Below, one piece after another: positions 12,731-41,222 of a stretch of DNA of 41,238 bases (within the stretch, counting starts at the first letter, position 1; each line of letters starts with the position of its first letter). The position numbers and the translations under genes were made by a program. The stretch covers positions 1-41,238 of the forward strand of contig CAYMJO010000002.1 of the NCBI GenBank assembly GCA_964391305.1, in the 5' to 3' direction. The notes under the pieces are model-generated. The model worked only from the letters and a program-made list of their open reading frames with translations, made no database searches and was not told the DNA's origin. The DNA is from an uncultured Candidatus Saccharibacteria bacterium (GTDB lineage: Bacteria; Patescibacteriota; CALEFQ01).

Positions 12731-14221
12731 ATGAAGATATTTATTTCATATCCTCCATACAGATCAGCAAAAGGAATTCCGTGTCTCACGCAAAATCGGC
12801 AATTCCAATGGTTCAACAATCCTTCTTATATTCCTCCCGTTGTGCCGATGACCGCGGCGACAATGCTCGCGAAAGCGGGACACAAAGTTTTTTGGAATGA
12901 CGCAATCGCGCAAGAATGGACTTACGAGCGTTTTTTGAATTTTTTAAAGAAAGAAAAGCCGGATTTGTGGGTGACTGAAGTCAAAACGCCTGTTGTAAAA
13001 CTATGTTGGAAAATAATAGATGAAATTAAAAAAGTCTCTCCGGACACGAAAATTGTCATGATGGGCGATCATATCACCGCGATGCCCGAAGAAACTTTTG
13101 AAAACAGTAAAACAGATTTTGCCATTATCGGCGGAGATTATGATTTTTTATTAAAAAATCTCGTTGAAAATTTTAAAAATGGAAAGATTGCCCAAGAAAA
13201 ACTTTCGACTTGCATAATGTGCAGAGAAAATGGGGAATTAAAAAAAGGCAAAACACAATTGAAATACAATCTTAATGACGCGCCTTTCATAGATAGAGAT
13301 CTGACAAAATGGAAACTCTACCAACAGCATTGGTTCAGAAGAACGCCCGGCACATACATCATGTCCGCGAGAGACTGCTGGTGGGGAAAATGTACTTTTT
13401 GCGCGTGGACGACCTTGTATCCGCAGTATAGAGTCAGAACGCCCGAGAATGTTTTGGCTGAAATCGGAGAACTTATAGAGAAGTACAAAGTTAGAGAGAT
13501 TATGGATGACTCTGGGACGATTCCCGTCGGCAATTGGCTTAGAGAATTTTGCAATGGAATGATTGAAAGGGGATACAATAAAAAAGTAAAAATGAACTGC
13601 AACCTGCGCGCGGGAGCTATTAAATCCCAAAAAGATTATGATTTAATGGCCAAAGCAGGTTTTAAACTGCTTTTGTATGGAGTTGAATCTGTCAACAATG
13701 AAACTTTGAAAAAAATAAATAAGGGCAGAAGTAATCCTTACGACATTGTCGAAGATTGTAAAATGGCGAAAAAAGCGGGATTGAAGCCGCACTTGACCGT
13801 TATGATGGGCTATCCATGGGAAACCAAAAAGGACGCGGAAAAAACATTCACATTTATAAAAGATCTTTTGGTAAAAGGCTTGGCTGATTCATTGCAAGCT
13901 ACGATTGTCGTTCCGTATCCGGGGACTCCTTTGTTTGATGAATGCAAAGAAAAAGGCTTGCTTGCAACGGAAGATTGGAATAGATATGATATGCGCGAAT
14001 CAGTCATGAAATCAGAATTAAAACAAGAAGAAATTATGCAATTTACATACGATATGTATGCAAGTATAGCAAGAAATCCCGTATTTTTATATCATCAGTT
14101 TCTTTCAATAAAAGACATCTACGATTTTTTATATATAGTAAAAGCTGCTCGTCAAGTTCTCTTCGGAAAATTCAAAGATTTTGGAAAAGAAAATACAGAG
14201 AAAAAGTGCGACAATTGCTGA
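12731..14221 (+). CDS. B12-binding-domain radical SAM enzyme (class B) with a Cx4Cx2C cluster motif
   Basis: The N-terminal Rossmann-like segment is DLWVTEVKTPV...KIVMMGDHITAMP. The Cys triad is CWWGKCTFC (C216, C221, C224). The downstream TIM-barrel region is radical SAM-like. Confidence 0.75.
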   Translation: MKIFISYPPYRSAKGIPCLTQNRQFQWFNNPSYIPPVVPMTAATMLAKAGHKVFWNDAIAQEWTYERFLNFLKKEKPDLWVTEVKTPVVKLCWKIIDEIKKVSPDTKIVMMGDHITAMPEETFENSKTDFAIIGGDYDFLLKNLVENFKNGKIAQEKLSTCIMCRENGELKKGKTQLKYNLNDAPFIDRDLTKWKLYQQHWFRRTPGTYIMSARDCWWGKCTFCAWTTLYPQYRVRTPENVLAEIGELIEKYKVREIMDDSGTIPVGNWLREFCNGMIERGYNKKVKMNCNLRAGAIKSQKDYDLMAKAGFKLLLYGVESVNNETLKKINKGRSNPYDIVEDCKMAKKAGLKPHLTVMMGYPWETKKDAEKTFTFIKDLLVKGLADSLQATIVVPYPGTPLFDECKEKGLLATEDWNRYDMRESVMKSELKQEEIMQFTYDMYASIARNPVFLYHQFLSIKDIYDFLYIVKAARQVLFGKFKDFGKENTEKKCDNC

Positions 14222-14275
14222 AAGCAGAAATTCCCAATATGGTAATGGCAAAAAGTAACGCAGATTTTTAGAAGA

Positions 14276-14383
14276 ATCTATAGATGAACTCATTTAGAAT
14301 TTTTATCTTTTAGCCAAAAAAAAATTATTTTCTTGGCTAAAGTATAAGAAAAATAGAGAAAACTTTAAATGAGTTCTATAGAT
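14276..14383. repeat. 108-nt nested imperfect palindrome spanning the start codon of the next gene
   Basis: The basal stem pairs 14276-14284 and 14288-14296 with 14366-14383 (18 bp, 3-nt bulge). The apical stem pairs 14309-14317 with 14333-14341 (TTTAGCCAA / TTGGCTAAA). The ATG at 14369 lies in the 3' arm. Confidence 0.65.
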
Positions 14384-14827
14384 TTTTATACATTAGTAAT
14401 AAATGAAGCTTTCCATCTGGCGATTGTCGGTGTAATTTCAGTTTTTATTTACTGTAAATATAAAAAATGGTGGCTGATTCCGCTTGTTCTGTTTTTTGGA
14501 TTTTTCATTGACATTGACCATGGGCTGGATTACTGGCTGGTAACCGGAGTGAATCTGGATGTGGATAAATTCTGGAACATGGATTTTTATTGTATTCCTG
14601 GCGCCTTTCATATATTTTTGCATTCTCCTGAATTTTTGGTCATTCCATGGCTTTTTAAAACTCTTCGAAAAAATGGAATCGCGCCCGCGATCACGCTGGG
14701 AATGGGCGGCCATTTAGTTTTTGATATGGTGTCAAACGGAATTTATTGGTATAGCTACTTTTTTTCATATAGAGCATTCATAGGTTTTGATCTCAATCAG
14801 TTGCTCACGCATGCGTGCGGAGGCTAA
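14369..14827 (+). CDS. Small polytopic membrane protein, possibly a YdjM/DUF457-like metal-dependent hydrolase
   Basis: About four hydrophobic segments. The His/Asp motifs DIDHGLDYW, HIFLHSPE and GGHLVFD recall the membrane-bound hydrolase family; this is recall only. It is flanked by intergenic gaps on both sides. Confidence 0.5.
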   Translation: MSSIDFYTLVINEAFHLAIVGVISVFIYCKYKKWWLIPLVLFFGFFIDIDHGLDYWLVTGVNLDVDKFWNMDFYCIPGAFHIFLHSPEFLVIPWLFKTLRKNGIAPAITLGMGGHLVFDMVSNGIYWYSYFFSYRAFIGFDLNQLLTHACGG

Positions 14828-14902
14828 ACAATAAATTCAGCAAATGAACAATTCCTGTCAGATTTTTTCTTTTTTTAAAAACTGAAGTAATTCTAAAAAT
14901 AA

Positions 14903-15937
14903 ATGGCAGATAAACCAAAAATTTCAATAATCACTGCGACTCTCAATGCGGAAGAAGCGCTGAAAGTTTGTTATGAAGCGATTGCCAAACAAAGTTATCC
15001 AAAAGATAAAATCGAATTGATCATAGGAGATGGAGGCTCGGAAGATAAAACGCGAGATGTTGCAAAAAGTTTTGGTGCAAAGATCGCCAATAATCCGCTC
15101 AAAACCGCGGAAGCAGGAAAAGCGGCGGCGCTCAAGCTCGCGACTGGCAGTATTGTCGCAATCATAGATTCAGATAATGTCATGCCCAACGAAAATTGGC
15201 TCAAGCGGATGACAGAGCCTTTCCAAGATCCCGACATCATTGCGAGCGAACCTTGGGAATACACTTACCGCAGAGAAGATTCGGCTATTACGCGCTATTC
15301 TTCACTAATCGGCATGAACGATCCTTTATGCCTTTTCCTCGGAAATTATGATAGAAAAAATTTTATAACAAATAAATGGACGGCAATAAATCTAAAGCAA
15401 GAAGATAAAGGAAATTATTTAAAAGTTTATTTGAGTGGCAGAAAGCTTCCAACAATCGGCGCCAATGGATTTGTCATTAGAATGGAGGAACTTAAGAAAT
15501 GTTCGGTTGATAAATATGTTTTCGATATAGATCTTCTGTATGAATTGATCCAAAGAAAAGGCGGAAAAATTATTGTTGCCAAAGTCAAGACGGGAATCAT
15601 CCATCTATATTGCGACAGCGTTTCAACTTTTATAAGAAAGCAGAAAAGGCGAGTGAAAGATTTTTTCTATTTTGGAGAAAAGAAAGAAGATGCCGCGAAG
15701 TATCCGTGGATGAAGTACTATCTTCCCAAGGTGCTTTTGTTCTGCTTGGCATGCGTTACGATTGTTCCCCTATTGATCCAAATACTGATTGGATATTCCC
15801 GCAAGCCGGATTATATCTGGTGGTTTCATTTTGTTGCGTGCTGGATAACTTTGTGGTTGTATGGTTGGGGAGTTGTGTTTAATATGATTTTGCCCAAAAA
15901 AGCGGCCGATAGGAGTGATTGGAAGCAGACAAAATAA
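14903..15937 (+). CDS. GT2 glycosyltransferase with C-terminal TM segments
   Basis: Motifs: ISIITATLNAEE, LIIGDGGSEDKT and IIDSDNVM (DxD). The C-terminus is hydrophobic (LLFCLACVTIVPLLIQILI, WWFHFVACWITLWLYGWGVVF). Confidence 0.85.
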   Translation: MADKPKISIITATLNAEEALKVCYEAIAKQSYPKDKIELIIGDGGSEDKTRDVAKSFGAKIANNPLKTAEAGKAAALKLATGSIVAIIDSDNVMPNENWLKRMTEPFQDPDIIASEPWEYTYRREDSAITRYSSLIGMNDPLCLFLGNYDRKNFITNKWTAINLKQEDKGNYLKVYLSGRKLPTIGANGFVIRMEELKKCSVDKYVFDIDLLYELIQRKGGKIIVAKVKTGIIHLYCDSVSTFIRKQKRRVKDFFYFGEKKEDAAKYPWMKYYLPKVLLFCLACVTIVPLLIQILIGYSRKPDYIWWFHFVACWITLWLYGWGVVFNMILPKKAADRSDWKQTK

Positions 15938-15964
15938 TAGCGCCAAACCAAATTTTCACGCACC

Positions 15965-18280
15965 ATGCGAATATTTTTCTTAAATCACAATCAAGAACGA
16001 TTTGGGACATACTGGAGATGTTTGTTTTTGGGTAAATATTTGTCAAAACTCGGGCATGACATAACGATGGTCTGCGCGAGCGGAAAGGAATTTGACTTGC
16101 TTATCAGAAAACAGAAAATCAACGACCATTTCACCATCATTACTTTACCCCGTGTCAAGTACGCGCAATATATGACGGGACAGCTTTGGAGACTGGTGAT
16201 TTCTGTTTTTCAGGCTCTCTTTTATCGTTACGACATATTTCATGCTTTTACAGTTGCCCAACCACAAATCGGTGTTCCCGCATGGGTTGCCAAAAAAATC
16301 CGCCGCAAGCCAATGATTGTCGATTGGGATGATCTTTGGGCTGGGGGCTTTGCCGAGGCTCATCGTCCCATCATAAAAAAAGTCCTGACAAAATTCGAGC
16401 GAACAATTCCATATTATGCAGATCGCGTTACTTATGTTTCCAAATACTTGGGTGGCGAAGTTGCCAAGCTCGGACTGGAAAAACGGGCAACGCGAATACC
16501 AAACGGGGCGAACATAGACCAAATAAAAGTGTTGGACAAGGCAGATTGCCGTCGTAAACTCAAGCTCGATCCTAATGGCAAATATTTATTGTCCATGGGA
16601 AACACCTATTTTCAGAGCTTTAGAATACTCATGCAGTCCGCAGGAAAAGCAATGAAAAAAGATCCAAAGATCAAGCTGATTCTTCTTGGACAAATAGAAT
16701 CGATTCCGGACTTTGCCCGTAAATACTACAAAGAAATAAAAGATCGTATTATCATAGCCGGATCACGTCCATTTGAGGAAGTTCCGCTTTATATGGGCGC
16801 TAGCGACGCTTTGGTTTTACCGATGGACAATGACCCTATTGAATACGCGCGTTTTCCGATTCGATTCGGAGATTACCTTTGTGCCGGAAGACCGATAGTT
16901 TCCAACGCAGTCGGCGAAGTGAAACGTTACATGAATGAATACGACTGCGGATTGGCAAGCGCTTACGATGACATTGACGGTCTTGCAGACAATATTAACA
17001 AAGTTCTCAACGATAATGAACTTGCAGGCAAGTTGGGTAAGTCCGCTAGATTTGTCGCAGAGAATAAATTACAATGGCAGTTGATCGCTGAAAAGATGAA
17101 CAATGTTTATAAATCACTCAACAAAAAACTTGGTGATAAACTAAACATTGTTATTCTTTCACCGTTTTATCTTCCAAATGTGGGCGGAGTTGAAACACAT
17201 ATTGACGATCTATGCCGTTATTACCAAAAACATGGACACCACACGCATGTGATCACCTACAAGCCTCTGACAACGTCGGTCAAGGCGTTGCGGTATGAAA
17301 AGAAAAAGAATTTAGAGATCCATCGCGTTGCCTGGATTGGCTGGGGCCTTTTTCATAAATTTGAGAAGCATCCCGTAGTTCAGTTTCTCTATTTGACCCC
17401 CGTGCTGTTTGTTTTCACTTGGTATTTATTATTTGTCAAAAAAATCAAGTACGATACGATCCATGCTCATGGTTTCACTGCGGCGCTAATTACAAATATC
17501 CTCAACCGTTTTAATAAAAAACCGATTGTTTGCAGTATGCACGCAATTTATAACTTTGACGAGAGAAAATCCCTTGCCGATATTTGCCGCAGGATTCTCT
17601 GGCCCTTCGATCATGTTTTTTGTCTGGCACAACGTTCTGTCGAGGATTTGGTTGCCGCCGGTCTGCCGCGCGAAAAGCTCTCGCCTTATGTTCAATGGGT
17701 TGATCAGGAAAAAATCTTCAAACCTCGAAACAGGGAAGAGTGCCGCAGGAAGCTTGGTCTTTCGAACAAGTTCACGGTCTTATTTTTGGGACGTCTAATA
17801 GATAAGAAAGGCGTGAGCGTTCTTATGAAAGCTTCCGAGAGAGTTGACAAGGATGTTCAATTCGTTTTTGTCGGAGATGGTCCTATGAAGCAGAAACTTG
17901 ATGAATTTGCAAAGAAGCACGAAAATATTATTTCAGCTGGCAGAAAAAGTCAGAAAGAAGCTGGTTTATATTATTGTGCGACAGATGTTGTCGTCGTTCC
18001 GTCACAATATGAAGAAGGTTTTGCCAGAGTTGTTCTCGAAACCCTATCATCTGGCCGTCCGATAATCGCATCCAATAAGGGTTGTCTTCGGGAAATGATC
18101 ACAAAAGATGTCGGAGTTTTGCTCGATCCAACTATCGAAAATATCGCAAGAGCAATCAATAGATTTTACAAAAATACTGATGAATTGCGAGCGCTTGAGA
18201 AAAACTGCCGTGAATACGCGCTGAAGAATTTCAGCGATAAAAATTGTGAACATATTCTTCATTATTATTATCAACAATAG
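15965..18280 (+). CDS. Fused double GT4 glycosyltransferase (two GT-B modules in 771 aa)
   Basis: Module 1 covers ~15965-17140 and module 2 ~17141-18280. Module 2 has canonical motifs (LSPFYLPNVGGVETH, GRLIDKKGV, EEGFARVVLETLSSGRPII with E-x7-E). In module 1 the equivalent site is degenerate (FPIRFGDYLCAGRPIV). Confidence 0.85.
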   Translation: MRIFFLNHNQERFGTYWRCLFLGKYLSKLGHDITMVCASGKEFDLLIRKQKINDHFTIITLPRVKYAQYMTGQLWRLVISVFQALFYRYDIFHAFTVAQPQIGVPAWVAKKIRRKPMIVDWDDLWAGGFAEAHRPIIKKVLTKFERTIPYYADRVTYVSKYLGGEVAKLGLEKRATRIPNGANIDQIKVLDKADCRRKLKLDPNGKYLLSMGNTYFQSFRILMQSAGKAMKKDPKIKLILLGQIESIPDFARKYYKEIKDRIIIAGSRPFEEVPLYMGASDALVLPMDNDPIEYARFPIRFGDYLCAGRPIVSNAVGEVKRYMNEYDCGLASAYDDIDGLADNINKVLNDNELAGKLGKSARFVAENKLQWQLIAEKMNNVYKSLNKKLGDKLNIVILSPFYLPNVGGVETHIDDLCRYYQKHGHHTHVITYKPLTTSVKALRYEKKKNLEIHRVAWIGWGLFHKFEKHPVVQFLYLTPVLFVFTWYLLFVKKIKYDTIHAHGFTAALITNILNRFNKKPIVCSMHAIYNFDERKSLADICRRILWPFDHVFCLAQRSVEDLVAAGLPREKLSPYVQWVDQEKIFKPRNREECRRKLGLSNKFTVLFLGRLIDKKGVSVLMKASERVDKDVQFVFVGDGPMKQKLDEFAKKHENIISAGRKSQKEAGLYYCATDVVVVPSQYEEGFARVVLETLSSGRPIIASNKGCLREMITKDVGVLLDPTIENIARAINRFYKNTDELRALEKNCREYALKNFSDKNCEHILHYYYQQ

Positions 18281-18282
18281 CC

Positions 18283-19296
18283 ATGCCACGGGGGATTTAC
18301 GATCTCGTCATATACAATCACGGCGTGAAAAAACTCGCGGCTTCAATATTGCGAAGCGGCTGGTTTGTCAATAATCCTGTTTATAATTTCTTTTACAGGC
18401 GACGGATGCATGACCAAATGAAAAAATATGAAAAAATTCCGTTTCGGGTCATGGTGGAAAACACGAATATCTGCAATTCCAAATGTACGTTTTGTCCTCA
18501 CGAAACCATGAAGCGCCCAAAGGGTTTTATGGATAAAAGACTCTTCGAAAAAGTTGCTAAGGAATGCAAGAAGCTTGGAATAGAATATTTTACCATTTAC
18601 GGCTTCGGGGAACCGCTACTCGATAAAGATTTTGTAAAAAAAGTTGAATTTGCAAAGAAATTAGGATTGAAGCGAGTCACAACCAACACCAATGGAGAGC
18701 TTTTAACGAAGGATTTATCAGAAAAATTAATAAATGCCGGACTTGATGAAATTTATATCAGTTTTGACGCGGCTACCGACGCCGCTTATAGAAAAGTCCG
18801 ACCCATACTAAGTTTTCAAAAAACTGAAAAGAACATCAGGGATTTGATGGCTTTGAAACAAAAATTGGGGACTGACAAGCCGGAGGTCACGCTTAGTTTT
18901 GTTGAAAGCAATACAAATAGGCACGAAGTTAAGAAGTATATAAAAAAATGGAAAGACGTTGTAGATAATATTTCCATATCTATCATTCACAATTGGACAG
19001 GCAAGATCACAAGCCAAATGAGCAACAAAAAAAATCTGCGAAGAGATCCCTGTCGTCTTCTCTGGATGGATATGGTAATTAGTTGGAACGGAGACGTTCC
19101 ATTATGTTGTAATGATTACGAAAATAAGGTAATCTTGGGAAATATCAAGAATGAATCCATTCCCAAAATTTGGAATGGAAAGCTTTTGCGTTTGACTAGA
19201 AAAGAGCATATTGACGGCAATTATAGCGTCAACAAAATTTGCAATCAATGTGAATACAATTTCCACTACAAATCGCCTTGGTGGATTGGGAAATGA
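18283..19296 (+). CDS. Radical SAM enzyme with a SPASM/twitch-like C-terminal Cys domain
   Basis: Cluster motif NICNSKCTFCPHE (Cx3Cx2C). The C-terminal cysteines are CRLLW...PLCCNDY...CNQCE. Confidence 0.8.
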   Translation: MPRGIYDLVIYNHGVKKLAASILRSGWFVNNPVYNFFYRRRMHDQMKKYEKIPFRVMVENTNICNSKCTFCPHETMKRPKGFMDKRLFEKVAKECKKLGIEYFTIYGFGEPLLDKDFVKKVEFAKKLGLKRVTTNTNGELLTKDLSEKLINAGLDEIYISFDAATDAAYRKVRPILSFQKTEKNIRDLMALKQKLGTDKPEVTLSFVESNTNRHEVKKYIKKWKDVVDNISISIIHNWTGKITSQMSNKKNLRRDPCRLLWMDMVISWNGDVPLCCNDYENKVILGNIKNESIPKIWNGKLLRLTRKEHIDGNYSVNKICNQCEYNFHYKSPWWIGK

Positions 19297-19437: not shown

Positions 19438-20964
19438 ATGGACAATAAGAAGCAAAATTATTATGACGCCGTTTTTGTCTCTCCACCGTCAAGAATGGTA
19501 AACCATTACCGCCCGCCGGTTGCTTTGATGTACTTGGCTGGGTACTTACAGCATAAAGGCATGAAGCCATATATTATTGACTGCCCAATGAAAGAAGTTG
19601 TGCGTAAACAGAAATTTTACGACAACGTTTTGGAAGAGATGAAAAAAATTGAAGACCAGATGGTTCAAGAATTTAAATGGCTGAAGACAAAAATAGTAGG
19701 CGTCACTTTTTACACAGCGGAATATAACGAGGTTTTCAGCCTTGCAAAACGTTTTAAGAAAATCGATCCGGATGTCAAGATTGTCGTTGGGGGCATTCAT
19801 CCAACTTTTTACACTGACGAAGTTTTTGAGGATAAGGATTCTCCGATAGATTTTGCGATTATTGGCGAGGGTGAAATGACGATGTACGAATTAACTCAGA
19901 CAATTCAGGATGGAAAAAAGGATTTTCGTAACATCAAAGGAATTGCTTATCGTGACCGATTGTCTGGCAAAATTGTCAAGACACCCGCACGTTGCATCAC
20001 AGATAATCTAGATGGCATTTCTTTTCCTGCTTATAATTTGGTGGACATGGAATATTACACCAATGCATCACCTTATGCGATCCGCGGAGTTTTTCTACGC
20101 TCAACTCATGTTCTTGGCGGTCGAGGATGTCCTTCACAGTGCACTTTTTGTGTTTCAAAAAAACTGCGGGAGTATAGCGGCGGAGGAAAGTTTGTCCGAA
20201 TGCGAAGCCCTAAAAGTCTGGTGAAAGAAATCCGTTATCTGAAAAAAAAATATAGAATTGATTCGTTCTTTTTCATGGATGATCTTTTTACTCTTAACAA
20301 GCAGAATGTAATCGAATTTTGCGATTTGATGAAGAAAGAAAAAGTTGATATTTTGTGGGGCTGTGCTTCCAAAGTTTCGACACTAAACGAAGCTGTAATT
20401 AAAAAAATGGCTGAATCCGGATGTATCCAAATCGAATTTGGAGTGGAGCGCGCATCGGATCATGCCTTGCGCTTGTTGAAAAAGGGGATAACTATTAAAA
20501 AAGTCCGCGAGGTTTACCGTCTTTGTAAAAAATACAAGATTCGGACTTATACTAACATGCTCGTGAATGTTCCCGAAGAAACGGAGAAAGATTTGCAGGA
20601 TATTCTGGATCTTCTGAAAGATCTAGACTCGGAACTGGTCAGCATTAATGTTTTTATTCCACATCCGGGGACAGAAATTTATGAAAAATCCATATACAAT
20701 TTTACTAAAGAAGAATATCCGCTTTTGAGTTTCGCACATCCAGATTTTAAACCATTTCAAAGTTCGCTGAAATTTCATAAACACAACCTTGATATATTTA
20801 AGTGGACGGATGATCACATGAAGGAAACGAATAAAATCATTCCAAGCCTAAAATTTCATGTATCTTTTAAGTATTGGCGGACAATTTTGATGTCCAAACG
20901 TAAGCTGAACTATTTGAAGCAAGTGGGCGTACTTGCCCAAGAATTCTTTATGCAAAAATTTTGA
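19438..20964 (+). CDS. B12-binding-domain radical SAM enzyme (class B)
   Basis: The N-terminal B12-like Rossmann segment is IVGVTFYTAEY...KIVVGGIHPTFY. The cluster motif is GGRGCPSQCTFC. Confidence 0.85.
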   Translation: MDNKKQNYYDAVFVSPPSRMVNHYRPPVALMYLAGYLQHKGMKPYIIDCPMKEVVRKQKFYDNVLEEMKKIEDQMVQEFKWLKTKIVGVTFYTAEYNEVFSLAKRFKKIDPDVKIVVGGIHPTFYTDEVFEDKDSPIDFAIIGEGEMTMYELTQTIQDGKKDFRNIKGIAYRDRLSGKIVKTPARCITDNLDGISFPAYNLVDMEYYTNASPYAIRGVFLRSTHVLGGRGCPSQCTFCVSKKLREYSGGGKFVRMRSPKSLVKEIRYLKKKYRIDSFFFMDDLFTLNKQNVIEFCDLMKKEKVDILWGCASKVSTLNEAVIKKMAESGCIQIEFGVERASDHALRLLKKGITIKKVREVYRLCKKYKIRTYTNMLVNVPEETEKDLQDILDLLKDLDSELVSINVFIPHPGTEIYEKSIYNFTKEEYPLLSFAHPDFKPFQSSLKFHKHNLDIFKWTDDHMKETNKIIPSLKFHVSFKYWRTILMSKRKLNYLKQVGVLAQEFFMQKF

Positions 20965-20968
20965 TCTT

Positions 20969-21920: not shown

Positions 21921-22646
21921 ATGAGAGAAAAAAAAGATTTCTATTCCAAAAACCGCGCAATAGATATAATGGAAACAGGTAATTCTTATAATTACCTGAT
22001 TGGTCTTCTGAAATTTTTTGGTTTGAAAAAATTTCTGGATATTGGCTGCGGCGATGGATCATTTGCCAGCGCCGTTGGTAAAGCATGTGGCTGTGAGGTG
22101 AGTGGAGTGGATATTGCCGCACAATCTGTCAGTGAGGCAAGGGCTCGCGGCGTGGACGCGCATATTATAGATCTGGATGAAAAAAATTTGCCTTTTCCAA
22201 ATGAAACTTTTGATTGCGTATTCTGCGGCTATATCATTGAGCATTTGTATTCGCCGGATCATATGATGGAAGAGGCTCGCCGCGTGCTTAAACGGGGCGG
22301 AAAGATTATCGTTACGACTGCGAACCTGGCTTCTTGGTTCAATCGATTATCTCTTCTATTTGGCTATCAACCGATCTTTACGGATGTCAGCTTGAAGCAC
22401 AGCTTCGGACATCTCTGGAAACTCGCGCCAATGGGTCATTTGCGCCTGTATACTTATAGAGCTCTTCGAAAAATGATCGAGATTTACGGATTTAAAATAA
22501 TCAAGGTCAAGGGATTGGGAATAAGCAACAAATTCGGTTTCGGCAAATCACATCCATGGATCGCTAATTTTGCAAATTTTATTTTTCAAAAACCCTCTTT
22601 ATGTTCCCATTTAATCATTATGGGAACCAAAGAATCAAAAAGATGA
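21921..22646 (+). CDS. Class I SAM-dependent methyltransferase (MetW-like layout)
   Basis: Motif I is LDIGCGDGSFA, followed by FCGYIIEHLYSP and a C-terminal NLASWFNRLSLLFGYQP segment that recalls MetW-type proteins. Confidence 0.8.
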   Translation: MREKKDFYSKNRAIDIMETGNSYNYLIGLLKFFGLKKFLDIGCGDGSFASAVGKACGCEVSGVDIAAQSVSEARARGVDAHIIDLDEKNLPFPNETFDCVFCGYIIEHLYSPDHMMEEARRVLKRGGKIIVTTANLASWFNRLSLLFGYQPIFTDVSLKHSFGHLWKLAPMGHLRLYTYRALRKMIEIYGFKIIKVKGLGISNKFGFGKSHPWIANFANFIFQKPSLCSHLIIMGTKESKR

Positions 22647-28196: not shown

Positions 28197-28208
28197 AACG
28201 TGATTATT

Positions 28209-34073: not shown

Positions 34074-35550
34074 AATAAAGCTTTCTAGCGGTTATGAACG
34101 CTACTTTGTGCGTGCCGGGAGCCGCTGGCCTTTTTCTACAAAGAAAAAGAGGGAAGAAAAGCTTGAATATGTGCCTTTTCCGTTTTATTTGGCATATTCC
34201 GCGGCATTGCTTAAGAAAGAGGGATTTGAAGTGCATGCGTACGATGGTGTGGCTTTGAATGTGACCGAAAAATTTTTTTTAAAAAAAGTAAAAGAAATAA
34301 ATCCGGATATTGTACTCTTTGAAACTTCTACGCCGACAATTTCAGAAGATTTGAAATTCGCCAAGGAAATTAAGAAGCAAACCTCTAGGGTTGTAATATG
34401 TCTTGCCGGACCGCACGTGACGACTTTTCCGAAGAAAACTTTGGAAAGTTGTAAAGAAATTGATTATGTTTTACTGCAAGAATACGAGCTTTCCTTTCTA
34501 GATCTTTGTAAAATTTTGAAAGAAAAGCAATCCCCTGAAAATATAAAAGGAATTGCTTACAGGAAAGATGGACCGATTCAAATTAATAAGGCAGATTTGA
34601 TAGATCCGCTGAATCAGCTACCATTTCCAGATAGAACAATTTTCCCATCCAACGATAAACCGGACATAAACGTTTACTGGGACGGTTTCTGCCAATACAA
34701 ACCGTCTGTGCAAATGCATGCCTCTAGAGGCTGTCCGTTTCGATGTAATTTTTGTCTCTGGAATCAAGTCATGTATCAAAATGGAAAGTACCGAATGTTT
34801 CCTCCAAAACGCATCGTCGATGAAATGATAGACGCTCAAAAAAAATTTGGCGCCAAGGAAATTTATTTCGATGATGATACGTTTACGGCGGATAAAAAAC
34901 AAGTTTTGAGTATTTGCAAAGAAATCAAGCGGAGAGGTTTGAATATCAAATGGTCGGTGATGGGCGACGCGATGATTTCGGATAAAGAAATGATCGACGC
35001 CATGGCAGACGCCGGTTGTATCGGCATGAAATTTGGAGTCGAATCCGGTAATTTGAAAATCTTAAAACATATCAAAAAGCCCGTGAATTTCGATAAATTG
35101 AGAAAAGTTGCCAAATGGTGCGCGGCTCGAAAAATCAAAACCCACGCGACTTTTACCTTTGGGCTTTCTGGAGAAAGCGCGCAGACGATGGAAGAAACCC
35201 TGGACTTGGCAAAAAGTCTCGATGTTGATTCGGTACAATTTAGCATTACCACTCCATTCCCCGGAACGCGCTATTACGACGAATTAAGAGAAGAAGGAAG
35301 ATTGCTCGCGAAAAACTGGAAAGAATATGACGGCGCTTCGTCTTCGATTGTCAAATTTGAGCATTTGGAAAATAAGGAAGTGGAGAATTTTTGCGCAACG
35401 GCGAGCGGCAAATGGCTGCGCAACAAAGCTGTGAAGCCCACTTGGGTTCTTAGACAAATATTCAATCTCAACCGATTACGCAGGGGACAGGGGACAAAGG
35501 CTATTTTCAGTCGAGTCAAACGTGGATTCGAACTGGCTTCTCATAAATGA
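34042..35550 (+). CDS. B12-binding-domain radical SAM enzyme (class B)
   Basis: The B12-like segment is DIVLFETSTPT...VICLAGPHVTTFP. The cluster motif is ASRGCPFRCNFC. Its first 32 nt overlap the end of the giant gene in another frame. Confidence 0.85.
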   Translation: MKILLANPPCRIKLSSGYERYFVRAGSRWPFSTKKKREEKLEYVPFPFYLAYSAALLKKEGFEVHAYDGVALNVTEKFFLKKVKEINPDIVLFETSTPTISEDLKFAKEIKKQTSRVVICLAGPHVTTFPKKTLESCKEIDYVLLQEYELSFLDLCKILKEKQSPENIKGIAYRKDGPIQINKADLIDPLNQLPFPDRTIFPSNDKPDINVYWDGFCQYKPSVQMHASRGCPFRCNFCLWNQVMYQNGKYRMFPPKRIVDEMIDAQKKFGAKEIYFDDDTFTADKKQVLSICKEIKRRGLNIKWSVMGDAMISDKEMIDAMADAGCIGMKFGVESGNLKILKHIKKPVNFDKLRKVAKWCAARKIKTHATFTFGLSGESAQTMEETLDLAKSLDVDSVQFSITTPFPGTRYYDELREEGRLLAKNWKEYDGASSSIVKFEHLENKEVENFCATASGKWLRNKAVKPTWVLRQIFNLNRLRRGQGTKAIFSRVKRGFELASHK

Positions 35551-35565: not shown

Positions 35566-37029
35566 ATGAAACATAAATCTGAAATATTATTCGTAAATCC
35601 CGGCAGATATCTCTACGCTTATCCATCCCTTGGAATTGGATATCTGTCTTCTTATTTAAAAAAATATTCGAAATATGTTGAAAAAATTTCTCTAGCCGAT
35701 GAGAACGCCAAGGAGGTACCCGAAGATATTATAAAAGAAAATAGGCCGCGAATAGTCGGAATTATAGCTTCAACACCACAGATAAACCGGGCTCATGCAA
35801 TCGCAGAATTTTGCAAGGCTATGGATAAGGATATCATCTGTATTGTAGGAGGCGTGCATACATCCATATTGCCAAAAAGAACTCTTAAGGAATTTCCATG
35901 TTTCGATGTTGGGGTTTGCGGTGAAGGCGAAGAAACACTCAAGGAACTCGTTGACAATATTTTTGAAGCAGACTTCAGGCTCGACAAAGTAGACTGTTCG
36001 TCTATCAAAGGTTTAGTATATCGTAAGGAAGATAAGGTGTTTGTTTCCCCAAAAAGAGAGCTGATCAAAAATCTAGACACAATACCGATACCGGACAGAC
36101 GTTTGTACAATTTGAAATTTTATTTAAAGCCTAGACAAGCGATTAGAGGCGTTGCACGCAAGGCCGTTCAGATGATGAGCTCTCGAGGATGCCCTTATAA
36201 TTGCCGGTTCTGCTCCAGTTGTATCATGTGGGAAAGAAAAGTAAGATTTCATTCTTCAGAGCGTTTTATCGAAGAAGTTGAAGATCTAATCAGTCTCGGG
36301 TTTAATGGCTTCTTCCTACACGATGACACTTTTATCGCAGACAAAAAAAGAGTCCACCAAATTTGTGAGTTGTTGATAAAGAAGAACTATCATAAAAAAT
36401 TGATCTGGGCGGCGCAGCTTAGGCCCAATTTGATAAATAATGAAGATGATGTTGAAATGCTGCGGCTAATGAAAAAAGCTGGTTGTCTTCAGGTCGAATA
36501 TGGCTTCGAGAGCGGCTCCGACAAAGTTTTATCTTTTCTAAAAAGAAACTCCGCCACCATCAAGCAAAATCAGAAAGCAATTGATTTGACAAAAAAATCC
36601 GGTTTAAGAATCTTCGGCAACTTTATGTTGGGAACACAAGGAGAGACAAAAGAAGATATTATCAAGACAAAGAAATTTGTTCTTCGAAACAGCAACAAAC
36701 TGGATTATTTTCAAGCGTATATCACAACACCATATCCGGGAACGGAATTATGGGATCTTTGTAAAAAAGAAGGATTGCTCAAAGACGTTACTTGGGAAAA
36801 GTTTGGCATGGGAATTCTGGATGAAGTCGTTTTTTCCAACACGGTCGATCATGATTTCGTTTTGCAAACAGTGAGAGAATTGACACAGCACGCCGTGGGA
36901 AAAATTTCTACCATAGATAAACTAAAATGGCTGCGAGTAAGACTGGCGGATGATCCTAAATATGTCTTTAATATGTTAAAAGAACACTTTTTCCAAAGTG
37001 CTTCTATCAAATCACACGATGACAAGTAA
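35566..37029 (+). CDS. B12-binding-domain radical SAM enzyme (class B)
   Basis: The B12-like segment is IVGIIASTPQ...ICIVGGVHTSILP. The cluster motif is SSRGCPYNCRFC. Confidence 0.85.
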   Translation: MKHKSEILFVNPGRYLYAYPSLGIGYLSSYLKKYSKYVEKISLADENAKEVPEDIIKENRPRIVGIIASTPQINRAHAIAEFCKAMDKDIICIVGGVHTSILPKRTLKEFPCFDVGVCGEGEETLKELVDNIFEADFRLDKVDCSSIKGLVYRKEDKVFVSPKRELIKNLDTIPIPDRRLYNLKFYLKPRQAIRGVARKAVQMMSSRGCPYNCRFCSSCIMWERKVRFHSSERFIEEVEDLISLGFNGFFLHDDTFIADKKRVHQICELLIKKNYHKKLIWAAQLRPNLINNEDDVEMLRLMKKAGCLQVEYGFESGSDKVLSFLKRNSATIKQNQKAIDLTKKSGLRIFGNFMLGTQGETKEDIIKTKKFVLRNSNKLDYFQAYITTPYPGTELWDLCKKEGLLKDVTWEKFGMGILDEVVFSNTVDHDFVLQTVRELTQHAVGKISTIDKLKWLRVRLADDPKYVFNMLKEHFFQSASIKSHDDK

Positions 37030-38221
37030 TCCCACAAGTTCCCGTAAGTCAAAACTAAGAAAAAGAATCGGGGTAGTTGTCGGACAGATGATACAAATCG
37101 GCGGAGTTGGAATTGTAGCCATGGAAGAAGTAAGGAATTTCAGAAAGCTTGGATATGACGCAGAGCTCATCGTAATAAAAGAGAAAAAAGGATTTTTGGA
37201 ACATAAAAAACTGGCAAGCGACATTCCTCTTCGGTTTCTCTCAAGAGATTTCCCTTGGTGGGCCAAGATAAATTTCAAAATTCCAGGTTTTTCGTTCTTC
37301 TCTCTTTTTCATCTTTTGGCTTACTTCGCGATACCAAAAATGATAAAGAAAGGAGATTACGATCTTTTGATCGTCCACGAAACTTATAATTGCTTTTCGG
37401 TTTTACGTTTGCAGCGGAAGGGAATACCCTGTATAGCCTACATCTTCGATCCGATTTCACATGTTCTTCCCAGTGTTTATAAGAAAAAATTTCTAAGACA
37501 CTTTTTCCCCGTAATTCTTCCCATCGCGAAGCATTTTGATAAAAAGTTTGTCAGAGACAGCTCAATGACATTTGTAGGATCAAATGTTCACTTGAATTTT
37601 TACAAATCCCTCGACGTAGATGCAAGTAAGATCAAAGTAATCTATCCGGGAATTGTGCCGGAGCCAAATTATCCGGACACAAAACGCACGTACATAATGG
37701 CTCTGACCAAATGGGCCACAGGCAAAAAGCCAGGTTTTCTGATTAAGGTTTTGAAAAATTTGAAGAACAAAAAAATCAGATTGATAGTTGCGGGAAATTG
37801 GGCAACTCCCGAACTAAAAAGAGAGTTTTTGGAAAAAGCCAAAAGCGCCGGTCTGCAAAATAGAATCGAAGTCACCGGCCGCATTAGTAATGAGGAAAAA
37901 ACGAAGCTGTTTTCTTATGCTTTGGCGTTGATTCATCCTATATTTGAAGGATTTGGAATGTTCGCGCTCGAAGCGGCAACCTGTGGTTGTCCAACAATAA
38001 TGCCCGAAAAATCCGGCGTAACCGATGTTCTCAAAAATGGCAAAGAGGGAATATTCCTGTCTGAAGGCGATGTAAAAGCTTTTGTCAAACATCTCGATGA
38101 TTTTATTGATAATCCAAAGCTGGCTATTGAAATGGGCAAGCGTGCCAGAGAAGTGGCAAATAAGTACACATGGGTTTACCACGTCAAAAGGATAGAAAAA
38201 GAAATCAAGAACATTATATAA
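37019..38221 (+). CDS. GT4-family glycosyltransferase
   Basis: E-x7-E motif in PIFEGFGMFALEAATCGCPTIM. ATG at 37019 is preferred; the GTG at 36998 is possible. It overlaps the upstream gene end. Confidence 0.8.
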   Translation: MTSNPTSSRKSKLRKRIGVVVGQMIQIGGVGIVAMEEVRNFRKLGYDAELIVIKEKKGFLEHKKLASDIPLRFLSRDFPWWAKINFKIPGFSFFSLFHLLAYFAIPKMIKKGDYDLLIVHETYNCFSVLRLQRKGIPCIAYIFDPISHVLPSVYKKKFLRHFFPVILPIAKHFDKKFVRDSSMTFVGSNVHLNFYKSLDVDASKIKVIYPGIVPEPNYPDTKRTYIMALTKWATGKKPGFLIKVLKNLKNKKIRLIVAGNWATPELKREFLEKAKSAGLQNRIEVTGRISNEEKTKLFSYALALIHPIFEGFGMFALEAATCGCPTIMPEKSGVTDVLKNGKEGIFLSEGDVKAFVKHLDDFIDNPKLAIEMGKRAREVANKYTWVYHVKRIEKEIKNII

Positions 38222-38227: not shown

Positions 38228-39712
38228 ATGATAGCCTTTGTTTCAAATAGTAAAAATATACGAAGTATGACTGTTCCTGTTCATTATCTTAACATGTCGT
38301 CGTTCTTGACAGCTCATGGAATCGAAAATGACATTATCGAAGTCAAAGAACGATCTAGATTTATAGATAGGCCTTCCGAATATTACGATAACATTTTGAT
38401 TAACAGAATAAAGAAAAAACCCTATAAATATATCGGGCTTTCTTGCTATACGACAGATTATAATACAACATTAAAACTTATTAAAAAAATAAAGAAGGCG
38501 TTGCCCGACGTAAAAATTATAATTGGAGGACCACATGTGACTTTGCGTCCCAAGGATCCATTTCTTTCAAAAGCCCCCGTGGATGTAGTCATTATAGGAG
38601 AAGGAGAATATCCACTATTAAATATTTTAAAAAAGAAGAAAAGTCTGCATGAGATTGACGGCGTTTGTTTCAAAGAAAAAGGAAAAATCATAATTAACAA
38701 ACCACAATGTCTAGCTAAAGATCTGACGCACATTCCATTGCCCGCATACGACAAGATTGACATGGATTTTTATCTGCGACCTGACAATATGGGAATAAGA
38801 TTTTTGGTGACATCGTGCATACATATTTTTACGAGTCTTGGCTGTCCGTTCAACTGCGTCTTCTGCGCAAATAAAGGGCTGTACAAAGCGCAAAATAGTA
38901 GTAAAATAGTCAGATGTAAAAGCGTTGATCAAGTTATCAATGAAATCAAATTTTTAAAAAAGAAATACGGCATGGAAGCTTTTTACATACAGGACGACAC
39001 CCTTACGCTAGATAAAAAAAGAGTTAAAGAAATATGCCGTCGATTGAAAAAGGAAAAGCTTAACATGCTTTGGGGAGCAGAGACGCGAGTAAACCTTATC
39101 AACGAAGATCTTATTGTAAAAATGAAATATGCTGGATGCCGTCAACTCGATTTTGGAGTTGAGGCGGCAACTCAAGAAGCGCTGGACAGAATCAAAAAGA
39201 AAATAACTATCGAAGAGACCAAGAAGGCTTTTGCATTATGCCGAAAACATGGGATAAGAACGGGGGCAAATATCATGCTCAATATTCCAGGAGAAACGGA
39301 AAGGGATGTGAAAGAAATCAAAGGATATCTGAAATCTCTCAAAGCGGACGTATATTACATCGCTCTCACTGTTCCTTTTATTGGAACGGAAGCGTATGAC
39401 AAATATGTGAAACCTCGACTCACTCTCAAAGAGTACTCCCTTTTTGAAAATCCTTTTTTGTACGGCACTATCATTGACAAGCGCTTTCGACTGGCGAAGC
39501 ACAATCTGCCGCTCGAAAAAATCATTGCCAAAATGCGAGTTTCCTTGGTTCTGCCCAAAACAATTTTGGATTTTCCCCTACGCATGTTTTATATAAAATA
39601 TCTATGGAAATCGAAATATAAGCTGGCAATTTTATACTCAATGGCGAAAAACTTTATAGCCGTATTTAATCTAGGCTTGGAATTTTTGTTCAGAAAGAAA
39701 TCTCCTCAATAA
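38228..39712 (+). CDS. B12-binding-domain radical SAM enzyme (class B)
   Basis: The B12-like segment is YIGLSCYTTDY...KIIIGGPHVTLRP. The cluster motif is TSLGCPFNCVFC. Confidence 0.85.
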   Translation: MIAFVSNSKNIRSMTVPVHYLNMSSFLTAHGIENDIIEVKERSRFIDRPSEYYDNILINRIKKKPYKYIGLSCYTTDYNTTLKLIKKIKKALPDVKIIIGGPHVTLRPKDPFLSKAPVDVVIIGEGEYPLLNILKKKKSLHEIDGVCFKEKGKIIINKPQCLAKDLTHIPLPAYDKIDMDFYLRPDNMGIRFLVTSCIHIFTSLGCPFNCVFCANKGLYKAQNSSKIVRCKSVDQVINEIKFLKKKYGMEAFYIQDDTLTLDKKRVKEICRRLKKEKLNMLWGAETRVNLINEDLIVKMKYAGCRQLDFGVEAATQEALDRIKKKITIEETKKAFALCRKHGIRTGANIMLNIPGETERDVKEIKGYLKSLKADVYYIALTVPFIGTEAYDKYVKPRLTLKEYSLFENPFLYGTIIDKRFRLAKHNLPLEKIIAKMRVSLVLPKTILDFPLRMFYIKYLWKSKYKLAILYSMAKNFIAVFNLGLEFLFRKKSPQ

Positions 39713-39734
39713 ACTTAAATTAACGCTACATACA

Positions 39735-40400
39735 ATGAACCAAAATCAACTCAAAAATTCAGAAGCAGGTTACGATAAATTGCACTCCGATGAGGGATTT
39801 GCCGAAGAGCCGGAATATTATGAAATTTTGGGCTCGTTCCTTCGCGGAAATAAATCTGTCGATATCGGCTGCGGATCTGGTTTGATTGAAATTTTTTCTC
39901 CAGATACGGTCGCCGTTGACTTTTCAAAAAAGGCTTTGGAAATTGCGAAGAAAAAGGGAGCAAAGACTACAGTCCAGGCTCCAGCGGAGAAACTGCCTTT
40001 TAAAAACGATGAATTTCAAGTATCGTTGAGCAACGGTGTTCTTGAGCACTGTGTCGGCCAAACGAAAGCAGTATCGGAAATGGTTCGTGTTTCCAAAATA
40101 CAAATTCTTATCGTTCATGCCAAGCTTCCATTCCCATTTGCCCAACTCCGACCACTGACTAATAAAATCTTCGGACTTAAAGATCAACCGGTTGAAAATC
40201 CACTTTCCTTGCGAGAGATCAAAAGAATTCTCAAGGAAGCGGGATCAAGAACATTTATTGAGGGGGTTTGGAACTATATTGATCCTCGATGGATTTGGAA
40301 AAGGCTTCCATATGGTTTGATCAAATGGCCTTCACACTATTTCATTGTTGGCATGAAGACCAATAATACCGAGCGCAAGTTTTTAGGAGATATGAAATAA
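39735..40400 (+). CDS. Class I SAM-dependent methyltransferase
   Basis: Motif I is VDIGCGSGLIE, followed by LSNGVLEHC. Confidence 0.75.
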   Translation: MNQNQLKNSEAGYDKLHSDEGFAEEPEYYEILGSFLRGNKSVDIGCGSGLIEIFSPDTVAVDFSKKALEIAKKKGAKTTVQAPAEKLPFKNDEFQVSLSNGVLEHCVGQTKAVSEMVRVSKIQILIVHAKLPFPFAQLRPLTNKIFGLKDQPVENPLSLREIKRILKEAGSRTFIEGVWNYIDPRWIWKRLPYGLIKWPSHYFIVGMKTNNTERKFLGDMK

Positions 40401-40439
40401 TATTCACTTAATCCAATATTTTAATTAATTTGGACATTT

Positions 40440-41222
40440 ATGGAATATATTAAGTGCGATTTGTGCGGCGCGGACGATTATACTCGCTTGTATCGATTGA
40501 AGCAGATTTTTATTTCAAAAGAAGCTTTTTTCACACTGGTCAAATGCAAGAAGTGCGGACTTATTTACATTAATCCGCAACCAGACAAGCAAGAAATGTT
40601 GCCTTACTATATGGAACTAGAAAATTACTATGCCTATAAGAGTGATGAGAATGATAGTACTGAACTATACACCAGATTATTGCACAGCATCTCCAACCAT
40701 GCTATCCGTGAAGCTTTCAAAGAACGTCATCCCATAAATATCGGCTTGTTGCTTTACTATATCTCTCGGCATCGTTTTAGTACGTTTCCAAGAGAGAAAC
40801 GAAATCATGGAAAAATACTGGATGTCGGAACTGGATCGGGTTTTTACCTAAAGCAAGTCAAGAAGCTTGGCTGGAATGTGTACGGCGTGGATATAAATGC
40901 CCAGGCTGCCAAGATAGCTAATCGAAACGGACTTAATGTCTTTTGTGGCGAACTTGCCGATGCAAAGTATCCCAACAATTTTTTTGACTTGATAAGAATA
41001 TCCATGGTTTTAGAACATGTTCACAGCCCCAGAGAATATATCAATGAAGCTTATCGTGTTCTGAAGCCAGGCGGTCTTCTGGGAATTTCCGTGCCAAACA
41101 TTGGAGGATATACGGCGCATCTGTACAAAGAAAAGTGGGCAATCCTTGATGTTCCCCAACATCTTTTTCAATTCACCGACAAGTGTTTTGCATACGGACA
41201 TTTTGCACTCGGTTTAAGATAA
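40440..41222 (+). CDS. Class I SAM-dependent methyltransferase with an N-terminal CxxC...CxxC zinc ribbon; the C-terminus may be truncated by a frameshift
   Basis: Zinc ribbon: KCDLCGADDY...VKCKKCGLIYINP. Motif I is ILDVGTGSGFY, followed by ISMVLEHVHSP. The stop at 41220-41222 follows a TTT run, and another frame stays open to the window end (see finding). Confidence 0.7.
   Translation: MEYIKCDLCGADDYTRLYRLKQIFISKEAFFTLVKCKKCGLIYINPQPDKQEMLPYYMELENYYAYKSDENDSTELYTRLLHSISNHAIREAFKERHPINIGLLLYYISRHRFSTFPREKRNHGKILDVGTGSGFYLKQVKKLGWNVYGVDINAQAAKIANRNGLNVFCGELADAKYPNNFFDLIRISMVLEHVHSPREYINEAYRVLKPGGLLGISVPNIGGYTAHLYKEKWAILDVPQHLFQFTDKCFAYGHFALGLR

Follow-up and report, generated by a model that had tools for sequence, protein, structure and literature searches.

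Apart from one hopanoid step, nearly all known cases of sugar tailoring by radical S-adenosylmethionine (SAM) enzymes belong to antibiotic pathways. Among these enzymes, MoeK5 is a sugar C-methylase that acts on a lipid-linked saccharide and AprD4 is a diol dehydratase; in the hopanoid case HpnI, the enzyme that places the sugar before HpnJ, is a family 2 glycosyltransferase (GT2). Glycosyltransferases of the GT-C class act outside the membrane and use polyprenyl-phosphate-linked donors, and for one of them, AftD, DprE1/DprE2 produce the donor by modifying a sugar while polyprenyl phosphate carries it. Most characterized enzymes with a B12-binding radical SAM (class B) architecture are C-methylases (PMC12931638). 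For HpnJ, a non-methylating ring contraction of hopanoid-linked glucosamine has been proposed, and Fom3, which methylates cytidylyl-2-hydroxyethylphosphonate, a substrate linked to cytidine monophosphate (CMP), is grouped with MoeK5 and HpnJ in a sequence network of class B enzymes (PMC9204698). Here we analyze a whole contig of 41,238 nt from an uncultured Candidatus Saccharibacteria bacterium (CAYMJO010000002.1, assembly GCA_964391305.1; hereafter the window), whose 29 open reading frames (ORFs), all listed and scanned with Pfam, include seven radical SAM genes set among glycosyltransferase genes. Full-text literature searches, with papers on the Candidate Phyla Radiation (CPR) and reviews of class B enzymes, yielded no description of such islands, of an equivalent cluster or of envelope-glycan substrates for class B enzymes: the words ‘polysaccharide’ and ‘glycan’ are absent from the text of those recent reviews of cobalamin-dependent radical SAM enzymes that were searched (PMC12931638), and an Elusimicrobia paper that names B12-radical SAM genes deals with a cluster of nitrogenase paralogs and not with glycans.

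Radical SAM families and their links to glycosyltransferases

Five of the seven radical SAM proteins carry a B12-binding domain and are numbered here as families 1 to 5 in the order of their genes (12731-14221, 19438-20964, 34042-35550, 35566-37029 and 38228-39712). With Pfam gathering cut-offs of 32.1 bits for B12-binding (PF02310) and 29.5 bits for Radical_SAM (PF04055), all five pass both, at 67-88 bits for Radical_SAM and at 35.4, 65.2, 55.6, 58.3 and 59.7 bits, respectively, for B12-binding. The other two, at 18283-19296 (Radical_SAM 80.9 bits, SPASM 54.2 bits; motif CNSKCTFC) and 23438-24502 (82.1 and 57.1 bits; CNLRCKMC), carry a SPASM domain (PF13186, cut-off 21.5 bits). With only 5 Cys in each C-terminal region, against the seven-Cys pattern for two auxiliary clusters, they come closer to a twitch-like single-cluster type, and distant Protein Data Bank (PDB) matches to the second include MoaA, PqqE, BtrN, BlsE and DesII. 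The cysteine strings quoted in a first-pass annotation of this DNA are all present, with the canonical CX3CX2C spacing in four of the B12-type enzymes; that spacing does not extend to family 1, which has CX4CX2C (CWWGKCTFC; Cys216, Cys221 and Cys224). The family 1 arrangement is kept in 9/9 orthologs, with the pattern RDC[WW/PY/MF]GKCxFC, and the triad of family 3 in 75/75.

The same annotation had called the five B12-type proteins paralogous. This overstates their kinship, because pairwise identity among them is 25-34% and each family has its own orthologs in other phyla; we regard them as old, distinct families and not as recent duplicates. Orthologs of families 3, 4 and 5 score 753-817 bits (776 for family 4 and 753 for family 5) in locus L001, family 2 has an ortholog of 659 bits in a Lentisphaerae locus (L020), and family 1 orthologs of ~500-614 bits occur in Shapirobacteria, in the PVC (Planctomycetes-Verrucomicrobia-Chlamydiae) group and in other loci. 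Family 1 has 5874 relatives at E<=1e-20, including proteins from Methanoperedens, Actinomycetota, Omnitrophota and Chloroflexota, and family 3 is present at 530 confirmed loci in species-representative genomes, as found by a scan with alignment A1. A count of 18,957 representatives at E<=1e-30 was rejected as a measure of family 3, since the window's own five proteins hit one another at ~1e-40 and the count takes in a large part of class B. Members of the families occur across Patescibacteria, Elusimicrobiota, Verrucomicrobiota, Myxococcota, Bacteroidales, Omnitrophota and DPANN archaea.

Gene fusions connect family 3 to sugar transfer directly. An exhaustive A1 profile search showed many of the 150 best cluster representatives to be multidomain proteins, and Pfam scans of 53 multidomain members identified a GT2 domain in 18, a family 4 glycosyltransferase (GT4) domain in three, a SPASM domain in two and a class I methyltransferase in one (P0152). 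P0161 consists of GT2, B12-binding and radical SAM domains, P0176 of GT2, B12-radical SAM and GT4, P0154 of radical SAM and GT2, and P0137 of radical SAM and GT4; in P0111 (52% identity), a nucleotidyltransferase is fused to the radical SAM part. Such fusions are our strongest evidence that family 3 would operate at the stage of the pathway where substrates are activated or glycosyl groups transferred. They also offer a direct experimental entry point where GT2 is the partner, because donor, acceptor and tailoring activities share one polypeptide.

A separate N-terminal domain of ~290 aa, apparently beta-rich, recurs fused to family 3 in P0183, P0196, P0149 and P0221 (residues 1 to about 290), and P0168 has two copies of it within residues 1-600. 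No Pfam domain was found in this region in any of the five proteins, and the P0196 segment had no NCBIfam match.

Gene neighborhoods tie the radical SAM families to GT-C enzymes from both sides. Starting from family 3, for which the best 80 of the 530 loci were kept, raw counts place a GT-C gene within 10 kb in 27 of the 80, and in 17 of the 41 with at least 18 kb of sequence. Starting from the GT-C modules, a scan of metagenome contigs with a closer GT-C alignment (A3) gave 42 AftD-like loci; a B12-type radical SAM homolog is present in 16 of these, and in 13/16 among loci of at least 8 kb, and the radical SAM gene is often the immediate neighbor of the GT-C gene. Co-occurrence with AftD-like proteins, which the first-pass annotation had proposed as a check, holds within CPR; elsewhere the partner is a different GT-C. 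Among family 3 loci, AftD-like GT-C genes are confined to CPR loci and one Planctomycetia locus, and the GT-C enzymes outside CPR are PMT_2/ArnT-like (Pfam on 55 large polytopic neighbors: 21 PMT_2, 3 PMT and 1 AftD). Two arrangements are typical outside CPR: in Elusimicrobia the order is PMT_2, two short-chain dehydrogenase/reductase (SDR) genes, family 3, a second B12 radical SAM gene and a GT4, and in Verrucomicrobia and Bacteroidales it is SDR, a WecG/TagA glycosyltransferase and family 3. Synteny, the GT-C association seen from both sides and the GT2 and GT4 fusions together show a functional tie between the radical SAM genes and glycosyl transfer.

The island also recurs as a unit. A metagenome-assembled genome (MAG) of another CPR bacterium, GCA_042570845.1, has its left half in locus L131 and its right half in L001, in nearly the same gene order; the two proteins compared are 76% (12731-14221) and 69% (34042-35550) identical to their counterparts. 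Locus L129, only 21 kb long, holds 8 radical SAM genes, four of them B12-type and four further ones, two of these with SPASM, together with four methyltransferases, one AftD-like GT-C, two GT2 and four complete GT4 genes, a fifth GT4 being cut by the end of the locus. L130 has five B12-type and two SPASM radical SAM genes, two AftD-like GT-C genes and five GT4 genes, and similar islands lie in L002, in L008 (Shapirobacteria) and in L012 and L014 (Moranbacteria-like). Seven radical SAM genes among the 18 called in 12731-41222 correspond to a binomial tail of ~5e-9, given a genome-wide frequency of 1.5% that was assumed and not measured; chance is not a credible source of this density, and the same make-up recurs in independent contigs. 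In the Lentisphaerae MAG, L020 (4214-17367) has six orthologs of window genes; among them are the double GT4, a single GT4, the SPASM protein of 23438-24502 and radical SAM families 2 and 3. No AftD-like GT-C is present there, and the last gene of the locus encodes a DUF2961 protein. This locus suggests that a core of radical SAM and GT4 genes moves between phyla.

Extent and gene content of the island

Every ORF lies at the coordinates stated in the first-pass annotation, and Pfam bears out most of its inventory of 12731-41222: five B12-binding and two SPASM radical SAM genes, five class I methyltransferases, one GT2, with two more GT2 genes upstream at 9691-11580, and three GT-C modules. The GT4 count had to be revised, as four of the five domains listed for this stretch lie within it (two in 15965-18280, one each in 26985-28196 and 36998-38221) and the fifth is the gene at 478-1854. 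The last 14 genes (19438-41222) form the same-strand run that had been described, with intergenic distances of -46 to +39 nt and hence no gap above ~40 nt. All but one of the window's genes are on the plus strand, 6792-8276 being the sole minus-strand gene.

The three GT-C modules are, by sequence comparison, real. An AftD-like protein of 827 aa (24515-26998) has 10 predicted transmembrane helices, including a C-terminal anchor, and a borderline GT-C_AftD (PF11847) score of 26.9 bits against a cut-off of 26, which is backed by its ~24% identity to the other two modules. These form a tandem protein of 1957 aa (28200-34073; GT-C_AftD 131.5 bits in two stretches, 22 predicted transmembrane helices, in two blocks with a C-terminal anchor) whose halves are 34% identical over 609 residues. 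Predicted membrane helices number 11, 10 and 9 in the three modules, plus one C-terminal anchor helix per protein. A GGD motif occupies residues 36-38 of the 1957-aa protein; G37 and D38 are invariant among relatives (alignments A2 and A3), and in the alignment to AftD (6W98) this first-loop Asp falls on the D of the PDT motif. In each tandem module a large non-membrane region follows, and the GT-C proteins seen complete in related loci are single-module proteins of about 780-950 aa. A GT-C module used as query in a word-indexed search brought up only 10 proteins, a consequence of the family's high divergence.

Between and around these genes lie the remaining tailoring and transfer functions. 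Family 1 is followed by a small His/Asp-rich membrane protein of 152 aa (14369-14827) with no Pfam or NCBIfam match; L131 has a matching ORF of 152 aa after family 1, and weak homologs (21-43 bits) share loci with family 1 in L008, L012 and L014, so that this protein appears to travel with family 1 across loci. Next come a GT2 with one C-terminal transmembrane helix (14903-15937, Pfam), whose orthologs (377-381 bits) lie in the AftD-like GT-C loci L104, L113, L114 and L127, and the tandem double GT4 (15965-18280; Glycos_transf_1 and Glyco_transf_4, two stretches each). Three class I methyltransferases separate family 2 from the second SPASM protein: 20933-21916, with an N-terminal Trm112-like zinc ribbon (Pfam), 21921-22646 (Methyltransf_11, 78.9 bits) and 22601-23425 (Methyltransf_11, 63.3 bits). 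Two more close the window, at 39735-40400 (Methyltransf_11, 57 bits) and 40440-41222 (Methyltransf_23, 79.4 bits). The GT4 at 26985-28196 (Glycos_transf_1, 92.1 bits) lies between the two GT-C genes. The GT4 at 36998-38221 (Pfam) has orthologs (395-411 bits) in L001-L005, downstream of family 3 by one or two genes, and seems to travel with families 3 and 4.

The glycan locus recognized by the first-pass annotation is larger than described there. Its left part holds a GT4 (478-1854; Glycos_transf_1 126.9 bits, Glyco_transf_4 46.9), followed by RmlB, dTDP-glucose 4,6-dehydratase (2088-3086; NCBIfam TIGR01181 461.6 bits, cut-off 365.1), a short RmlD-like SDR reductase (3123-3947; Pfam RmlD_sub_bind 63 bits, and 69 bits on NCBIfam rmlD, below the cut-off of 224) and the long form of RmlA, glucose-1-phosphate thymidylyltransferase (3937-5025; TIGR01208 480.6 bits, cut-off 320). 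Two exported proteins come next, a secreted or anchored one with a single N-terminal hydrophobic helix and three internal repeats (5172-6521) and an N-terminally anchored one of 494 aa on the minus strand (6792-8276). Neither has a Pfam, NCBIfam or PDB match, and L131 has ORFs of 451 aa and, on the minus strand, 482 aa at the corresponding positions. A Wzx-type polysaccharide flippase (8385-9707; Polysacc_synt, PF01943, 75.2 bits; 11 predicted transmembrane helices) precedes a GT2 that is a candidate polyprenyl-phosphate sugar synthase (9691-10464; Glycos_transf_2 102 bits) and a second GT2 with three predicted C-terminal transmembrane helices (10522-11580; Glycos_transf_2 and Glyco_trans_2_3). 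A PDB sequence search with the latter and with 14903-15937 returned generic GT2 matches only. The left part ends with an SDR sugar epimerase/dehydratase (11591-12706; Epimerase 167 bits in two stretches), whose SDR domain is interrupted at residues 133-166 by a CxxC...CxxC zinc ribbon (Zn_ribbon_8, residues 133-165).

The window has a GC content of ~0.39, and in database searches the products of 34042-35550 and 12731-14221 both find proteins of Patescibacteria MAGs as their top matches, in keeping with a CPR origin; with ACD_63C00180G0004 from an uncultured bacterium, the second of them shares 100% identity. The 20 nt upstream of each of the 28 plus-strand genes are A/T-rich, with no visible purine-rich motif of the Shine-Dalgarno kind, and overlaps of 11-46 nt occur between several neighboring genes. 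Scans of the window with Rfam and for tRNA genes gave no match, and hence no cobalamin riboswitch.

Proposed pathway and alternatives

On balance, the whole window is probably one envelope-glycan biosynthesis island in which radical SAM enzymes tailor sugars on phosphate-linked carriers. The gene inventory shows sugar activation by RmlA, RmlB and two further SDR enzymes, cytoplasmic assembly enzymes (five GT4 domains and three GT2 enzymes), a Wzx flippase and the three AftD-like GT-C modules. The radical SAM enzymes would have to act in the cytoplasm as well, because they need SAM and a reductant, and would tailor the sugars there together with the methyltransferases, before export and GT-C transfer. 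Their substrate would be a sugar on a phosphate-linked carrier, either a nucleotide or polyprenyl phosphate, directly before or after a GT2 or GT4 step. The most likely chemistry would be C-methylation of unactivated sugar carbons, with ring contraction or deoxygenation as an alternative for some of the five B12-type enzymes, and the ordinary methyltransferases would add O- or N-methyl groups. Tailored units may then be exported by Wzx or another flippase and transferred by the AftD-like GT-C modules, which, as is known for the GT-C class, would work outside the membrane with polyprenyl-phosphate-linked sugar donors. The predicted product is a heavily alkylated surface glycan or glycolipid.

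Several points weigh against this reading or against parts of it. Pfam found no initiating phosphoglycosyltransferase (Bac_transf or MraY/WecA-type) and no RmlC in the window, and Pfam together with transmembrane prediction found no recognizable Wzy polymerase; these functions may be encoded elsewhere in the genome, or the GT-C modules may replace them. The polyprenyl-phosphate-sugar role of 9691-10464 is drawn from sub-threshold matches of ~70 bits (the top NCBIfam matches, all below cut-off, are PpgS at 70.8, PgfS at 70.8 and ArnC at 54.3). The nucleotidyltransferase fusion points to a nucleotide-linked substrate and the GT-C association to a lipid-linked one. The counts of GT-C co-occurrence lack a background rate and, with crude ORF calling, are lower bounds. 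There is no characterized substrate or product for any of the seven radical SAM families, and none of the seven proteins attains any NCBIfam curated cut-off; by the same scores, orthology to enzymes whose established role lies outside glycans is not seen for any of them. Together with the conserved cysteine motifs, this means that two of the conditions that would have refuted the first-pass annotation do not hold. HpnJ (TIGR03471, cut-off 577.6 bits) ranks first among the curated families for families 1, 3 and 5, at 133.4, 263.0 (over nearly the full model) and 177.8 bits, respectively, and gives 159 bits for family 2 and 149.9 for family 4, for both of which BchE (cut-off 481) comes first, at 177.8 and 184 bits. 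Scores on the BchE, PhpK, HpnR, ApyD, BzaD, Mmp10-type, KedN5, ArsL, AprD4 and ladderane models are 2- to 10-fold under their cut-offs.

The structural comparison belongs with these points. The AlphaFold2 (AF2) model of family 3 has a pLDDT of 91.8 and a class B-type fold, so the predicted architecture is class B-like. Its top solved structure, both by sequence (80 bits) and by fold (template modeling (TM) scores of 0.70/0.77), is AprD4, and the next fold matches are TsrM, MgmA, CysS, OxsB and TokK. AprD4 is listed as an enzyme without cobalamin binding (PMC12931638). Methylation and cobalamin use by the B12-type enzymes are plausible but not secured, because the top structure match is reported without cobalamin binding. 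The heavy cobalamin demand put forward in the first-pass annotation is an inference and not a finding, because of AprD4 and because HpnJ, the nearest curated family, is proposed to be non-methylating; C-methylation as the chemistry is likewise not established.

These comparisons lead to the alternative that survives best. The same glycan tailoring could proceed by dehydration or deoxygenation (AprD4-like), by ring contraction to a carbocycle (HpnJ-like) or by epimerization, some of it perhaps without cobalamin, in which case every methyl group would be supplied by the five ordinary methyltransferases; we consider this a real possibility, though not a probable one. The AprD4 match and the missing cobalamin riboswitch fit it, and to our knowledge CPR genomes are without cobalamin synthesis. 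The two top curated families, HpnJ and BchE, are moreover both listed as non-methylases (PMC9204698). The B12-binding scores speak for methylation instead, as all five proteins exceed the Pfam cut-off; so do the C-methylating majority among characterized enzymes of this architecture and the close second place in fold of the cobalamin methylases TsrM, CysS, TokK and MgmA. The methyltransferase fusion in P0152 is neutral between the two chemistries.

A phosphonate substrate would place family 3, family 4 (35566-37029) and the GT4 at 36998-38221 in a Fom3-like system whose C-methylated CMP-hydroxyalkylphosphonate then decorates the glycan. Two types of neighborhood recommend it. In L004-L006 (L004, 201-7244), the order is a true phosphonopyruvate decarboxylase (Ppd), an iron-containing alcohol dehydrogenase (Fe-ADH), the fusion of NTP_transferase with family 3 seen in P0111, a family 4-like gene and an ortholog of the GT4 (411 bits); Ppd scores 456.7 bits on TIGR03297 (cut-off 312.5), and the top match of the Fe-ADH is a phosphonate-associated enzyme. 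In L018 (Desulfobacteraceae, 7842-19005), family 3, a GT4 and a CDP-alcohol phosphatidyltransferase stand beside Fe-ADH, Ppd, a fusion of PepM with a cytidylyltransferase, and NTP_transferase, a set that reproduces the logic of Fom1, Fom2, FomC and Fom3. By analogy, L004 and L018 look like Fom3-type chemistry feeding a phosphonoglycan or phosphonolipid, and the CMP-linked substrate of Fom3, together with its grouping with HpnJ (PMC9204698), fits this. These loci hint that family 3 accepts substrates on a phosphate- or phosphonate-linked carrier. For the window itself a phosphonate function was rejected, as no PepM motif (EDKx5NS) is present in its six frames, and we rate it improbable. The motif occurs in 1 of 130 loci (L018), a second match in L091 being spurious since it contains stop codons, Ppd and the phosphonate dehydrogenase are confined to L004-L006 and L018, and most family 3 neighborhoods instead hold SDR sugar enzymes and glycosyltransferases.

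It is very unlikely that the radical SAM chemistry is directed at the polyprenyl carrier or at a membrane lipid, in the manner of HpnP/HpnR, GrsA/B or Tes, while the glycosyltransferases independently build a glycolipid head group. Sub-threshold matches to HpnR, to a ladderane radical SAM model and, for a SPASM protein, to Tes lean that way, and the GT-C enzymes and the GT2 enzymes with transmembrane helices do operate at the membrane; yet no lipid enzyme is among the fusion partners, which are GT2 and GT4 domains of soluble type and a domain resembling sugar-phosphate nucleotidyltransferases, the neighbors are SDR sugar enzymes, and Pfam found no lipid-synthesis gene in the window. Least likely of all, and scarcely credible, are peptide C-methylases or maturases (proteusin-like) paired with GT-C glycosylation of, for example, an S-layer protein or pilin, for despite sub-threshold matches to ApyD (172 bits), rSAM_ocin_1 (131 bits) and several SPASM peptide maturases, and despite the protein O-mannosyltransferases among the PMT_2-type GT-C enzymes that are partners outside CPR, the intergenic gaps of the window hold no plausible precursor-like small ORF, the HpnJ score of family 3 is far above its score on any family of peptides made by ribosomes and modified after translation (RiPPs), and the presence of Rml genes, Wzx and eight GT2/GT4 domains points to a polysaccharide.

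Significance and comparison with described systems

If the envelope-glycan reading holds, large conserved families (the 530 family 3 loci and the thousands of family 1 relatives) would be tied to envelope glycan assembly. CPR genomes are roughly 1 Mb in size, and that a CPR bacterium spends more than 40 kb on this island, which is collinear in a related genome, suggests that the surface glycan matters for a host-attached lifestyle. Should the enzymes be cobalamin-dependent, surface construction would create a vitamin dependency in organisms unable to make cobalamin.

A near parallel to the GT-C modules is mycobacterial AftD (PF11847; PDB 6W98 and 6WBX), with which they share an N-terminal polytopic GT-C domain, a large extracytoplasmic region and a C-terminal helix. 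Unlike AftD, the window protein is a tandem two-module fusion of 1957 aa, with only 22 bits between it and the solved AftD sequences, and Pfam found no homolog in the window of DprE1, DprE2 or UbiA, which form the donor pathway for arabinofuranosyl transfer from decaprenyl-phospho-arabinose. Carrying the analogy further, we offer the tentative idea that class B enzymes, in many cases fused to a GT2 or encoded beside one, remodel carrier-linked sugars, by C-alkylation or by ring contraction to carbocyclic or branched units, and so make unusual GT-C donors; this would parallel, with radical chemistry, the DprE1/E2 step that supplies AftD. A route of this kind could be widespread in uncultivated phyla and much expanded in CPR bacteria that scavenge cobalamin, and would yield envelope sugars of undescribed kinds.

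Among radical SAM systems, HpnI/HpnK/HpnJ comes nearest, as HpnJ is a B12-binding enzyme proposed to remodel a sugar once it is on a lipid (PMC9204698), and the family 3 fusions of GT2 with radical SAM mirror the step order of HpnI and HpnJ. The differences are that the window proteins score far below the HpnJ cut-off of 577.6 bits, that five B12-type families stand in place of one and that the setting is one of Rml, Wzx, GT4 and GT-C genes; no hopanoid gene (squalene-hopene cyclase, HpnH, HpnI or HpnK) is found by Pfam among the 29 ORFs. Fom3, with the cytidylyltransferase Fom1, Fom2 and FomC, provides a class B enzyme that acts on a nucleotide-activated substrate, and family 3 relatives occur in a phosphonate setting in L004 and L018. 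The window, in contrast, is without PepM, Ppd, Fe-ADH and the phosphonoacetaldehyde reductase and cytidylyltransferase of such a setting, the phosphonate setting is limited to two neighborhood types, and the likeness comes from gene context and the sequence network.

The Arn pathway resembles the non-CPR cassettes of PMT_2, two SDR genes, radical SAM and GT4: in both, a sugar would be modified, loaded on undecaprenyl phosphate and transferred by a GT-C enzyme (ArnT/PMT_2). That pathway has no radical SAM step, however, and the GT-C proteins of the window are AftD-like, not PMT_2-like. GenK, GenD1, MoeK5, AprD4 and BtrN perform radical chemistry on sugar carbons with B12-binding-like or SPASM/twitch domains, as would be expected of the enzymes described here, but these antibiotic tailoring enzymes belong to actinomycete secondary-metabolite clusters and number one or two per pathway, against seven in the window's candidate envelope-glycan island. 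What is known, then, is the polysaccharide locus with its tailoring enzymes; what is new is a battery of uncharacterized radical SAM families coupled to GT-C glycosyltransferases.

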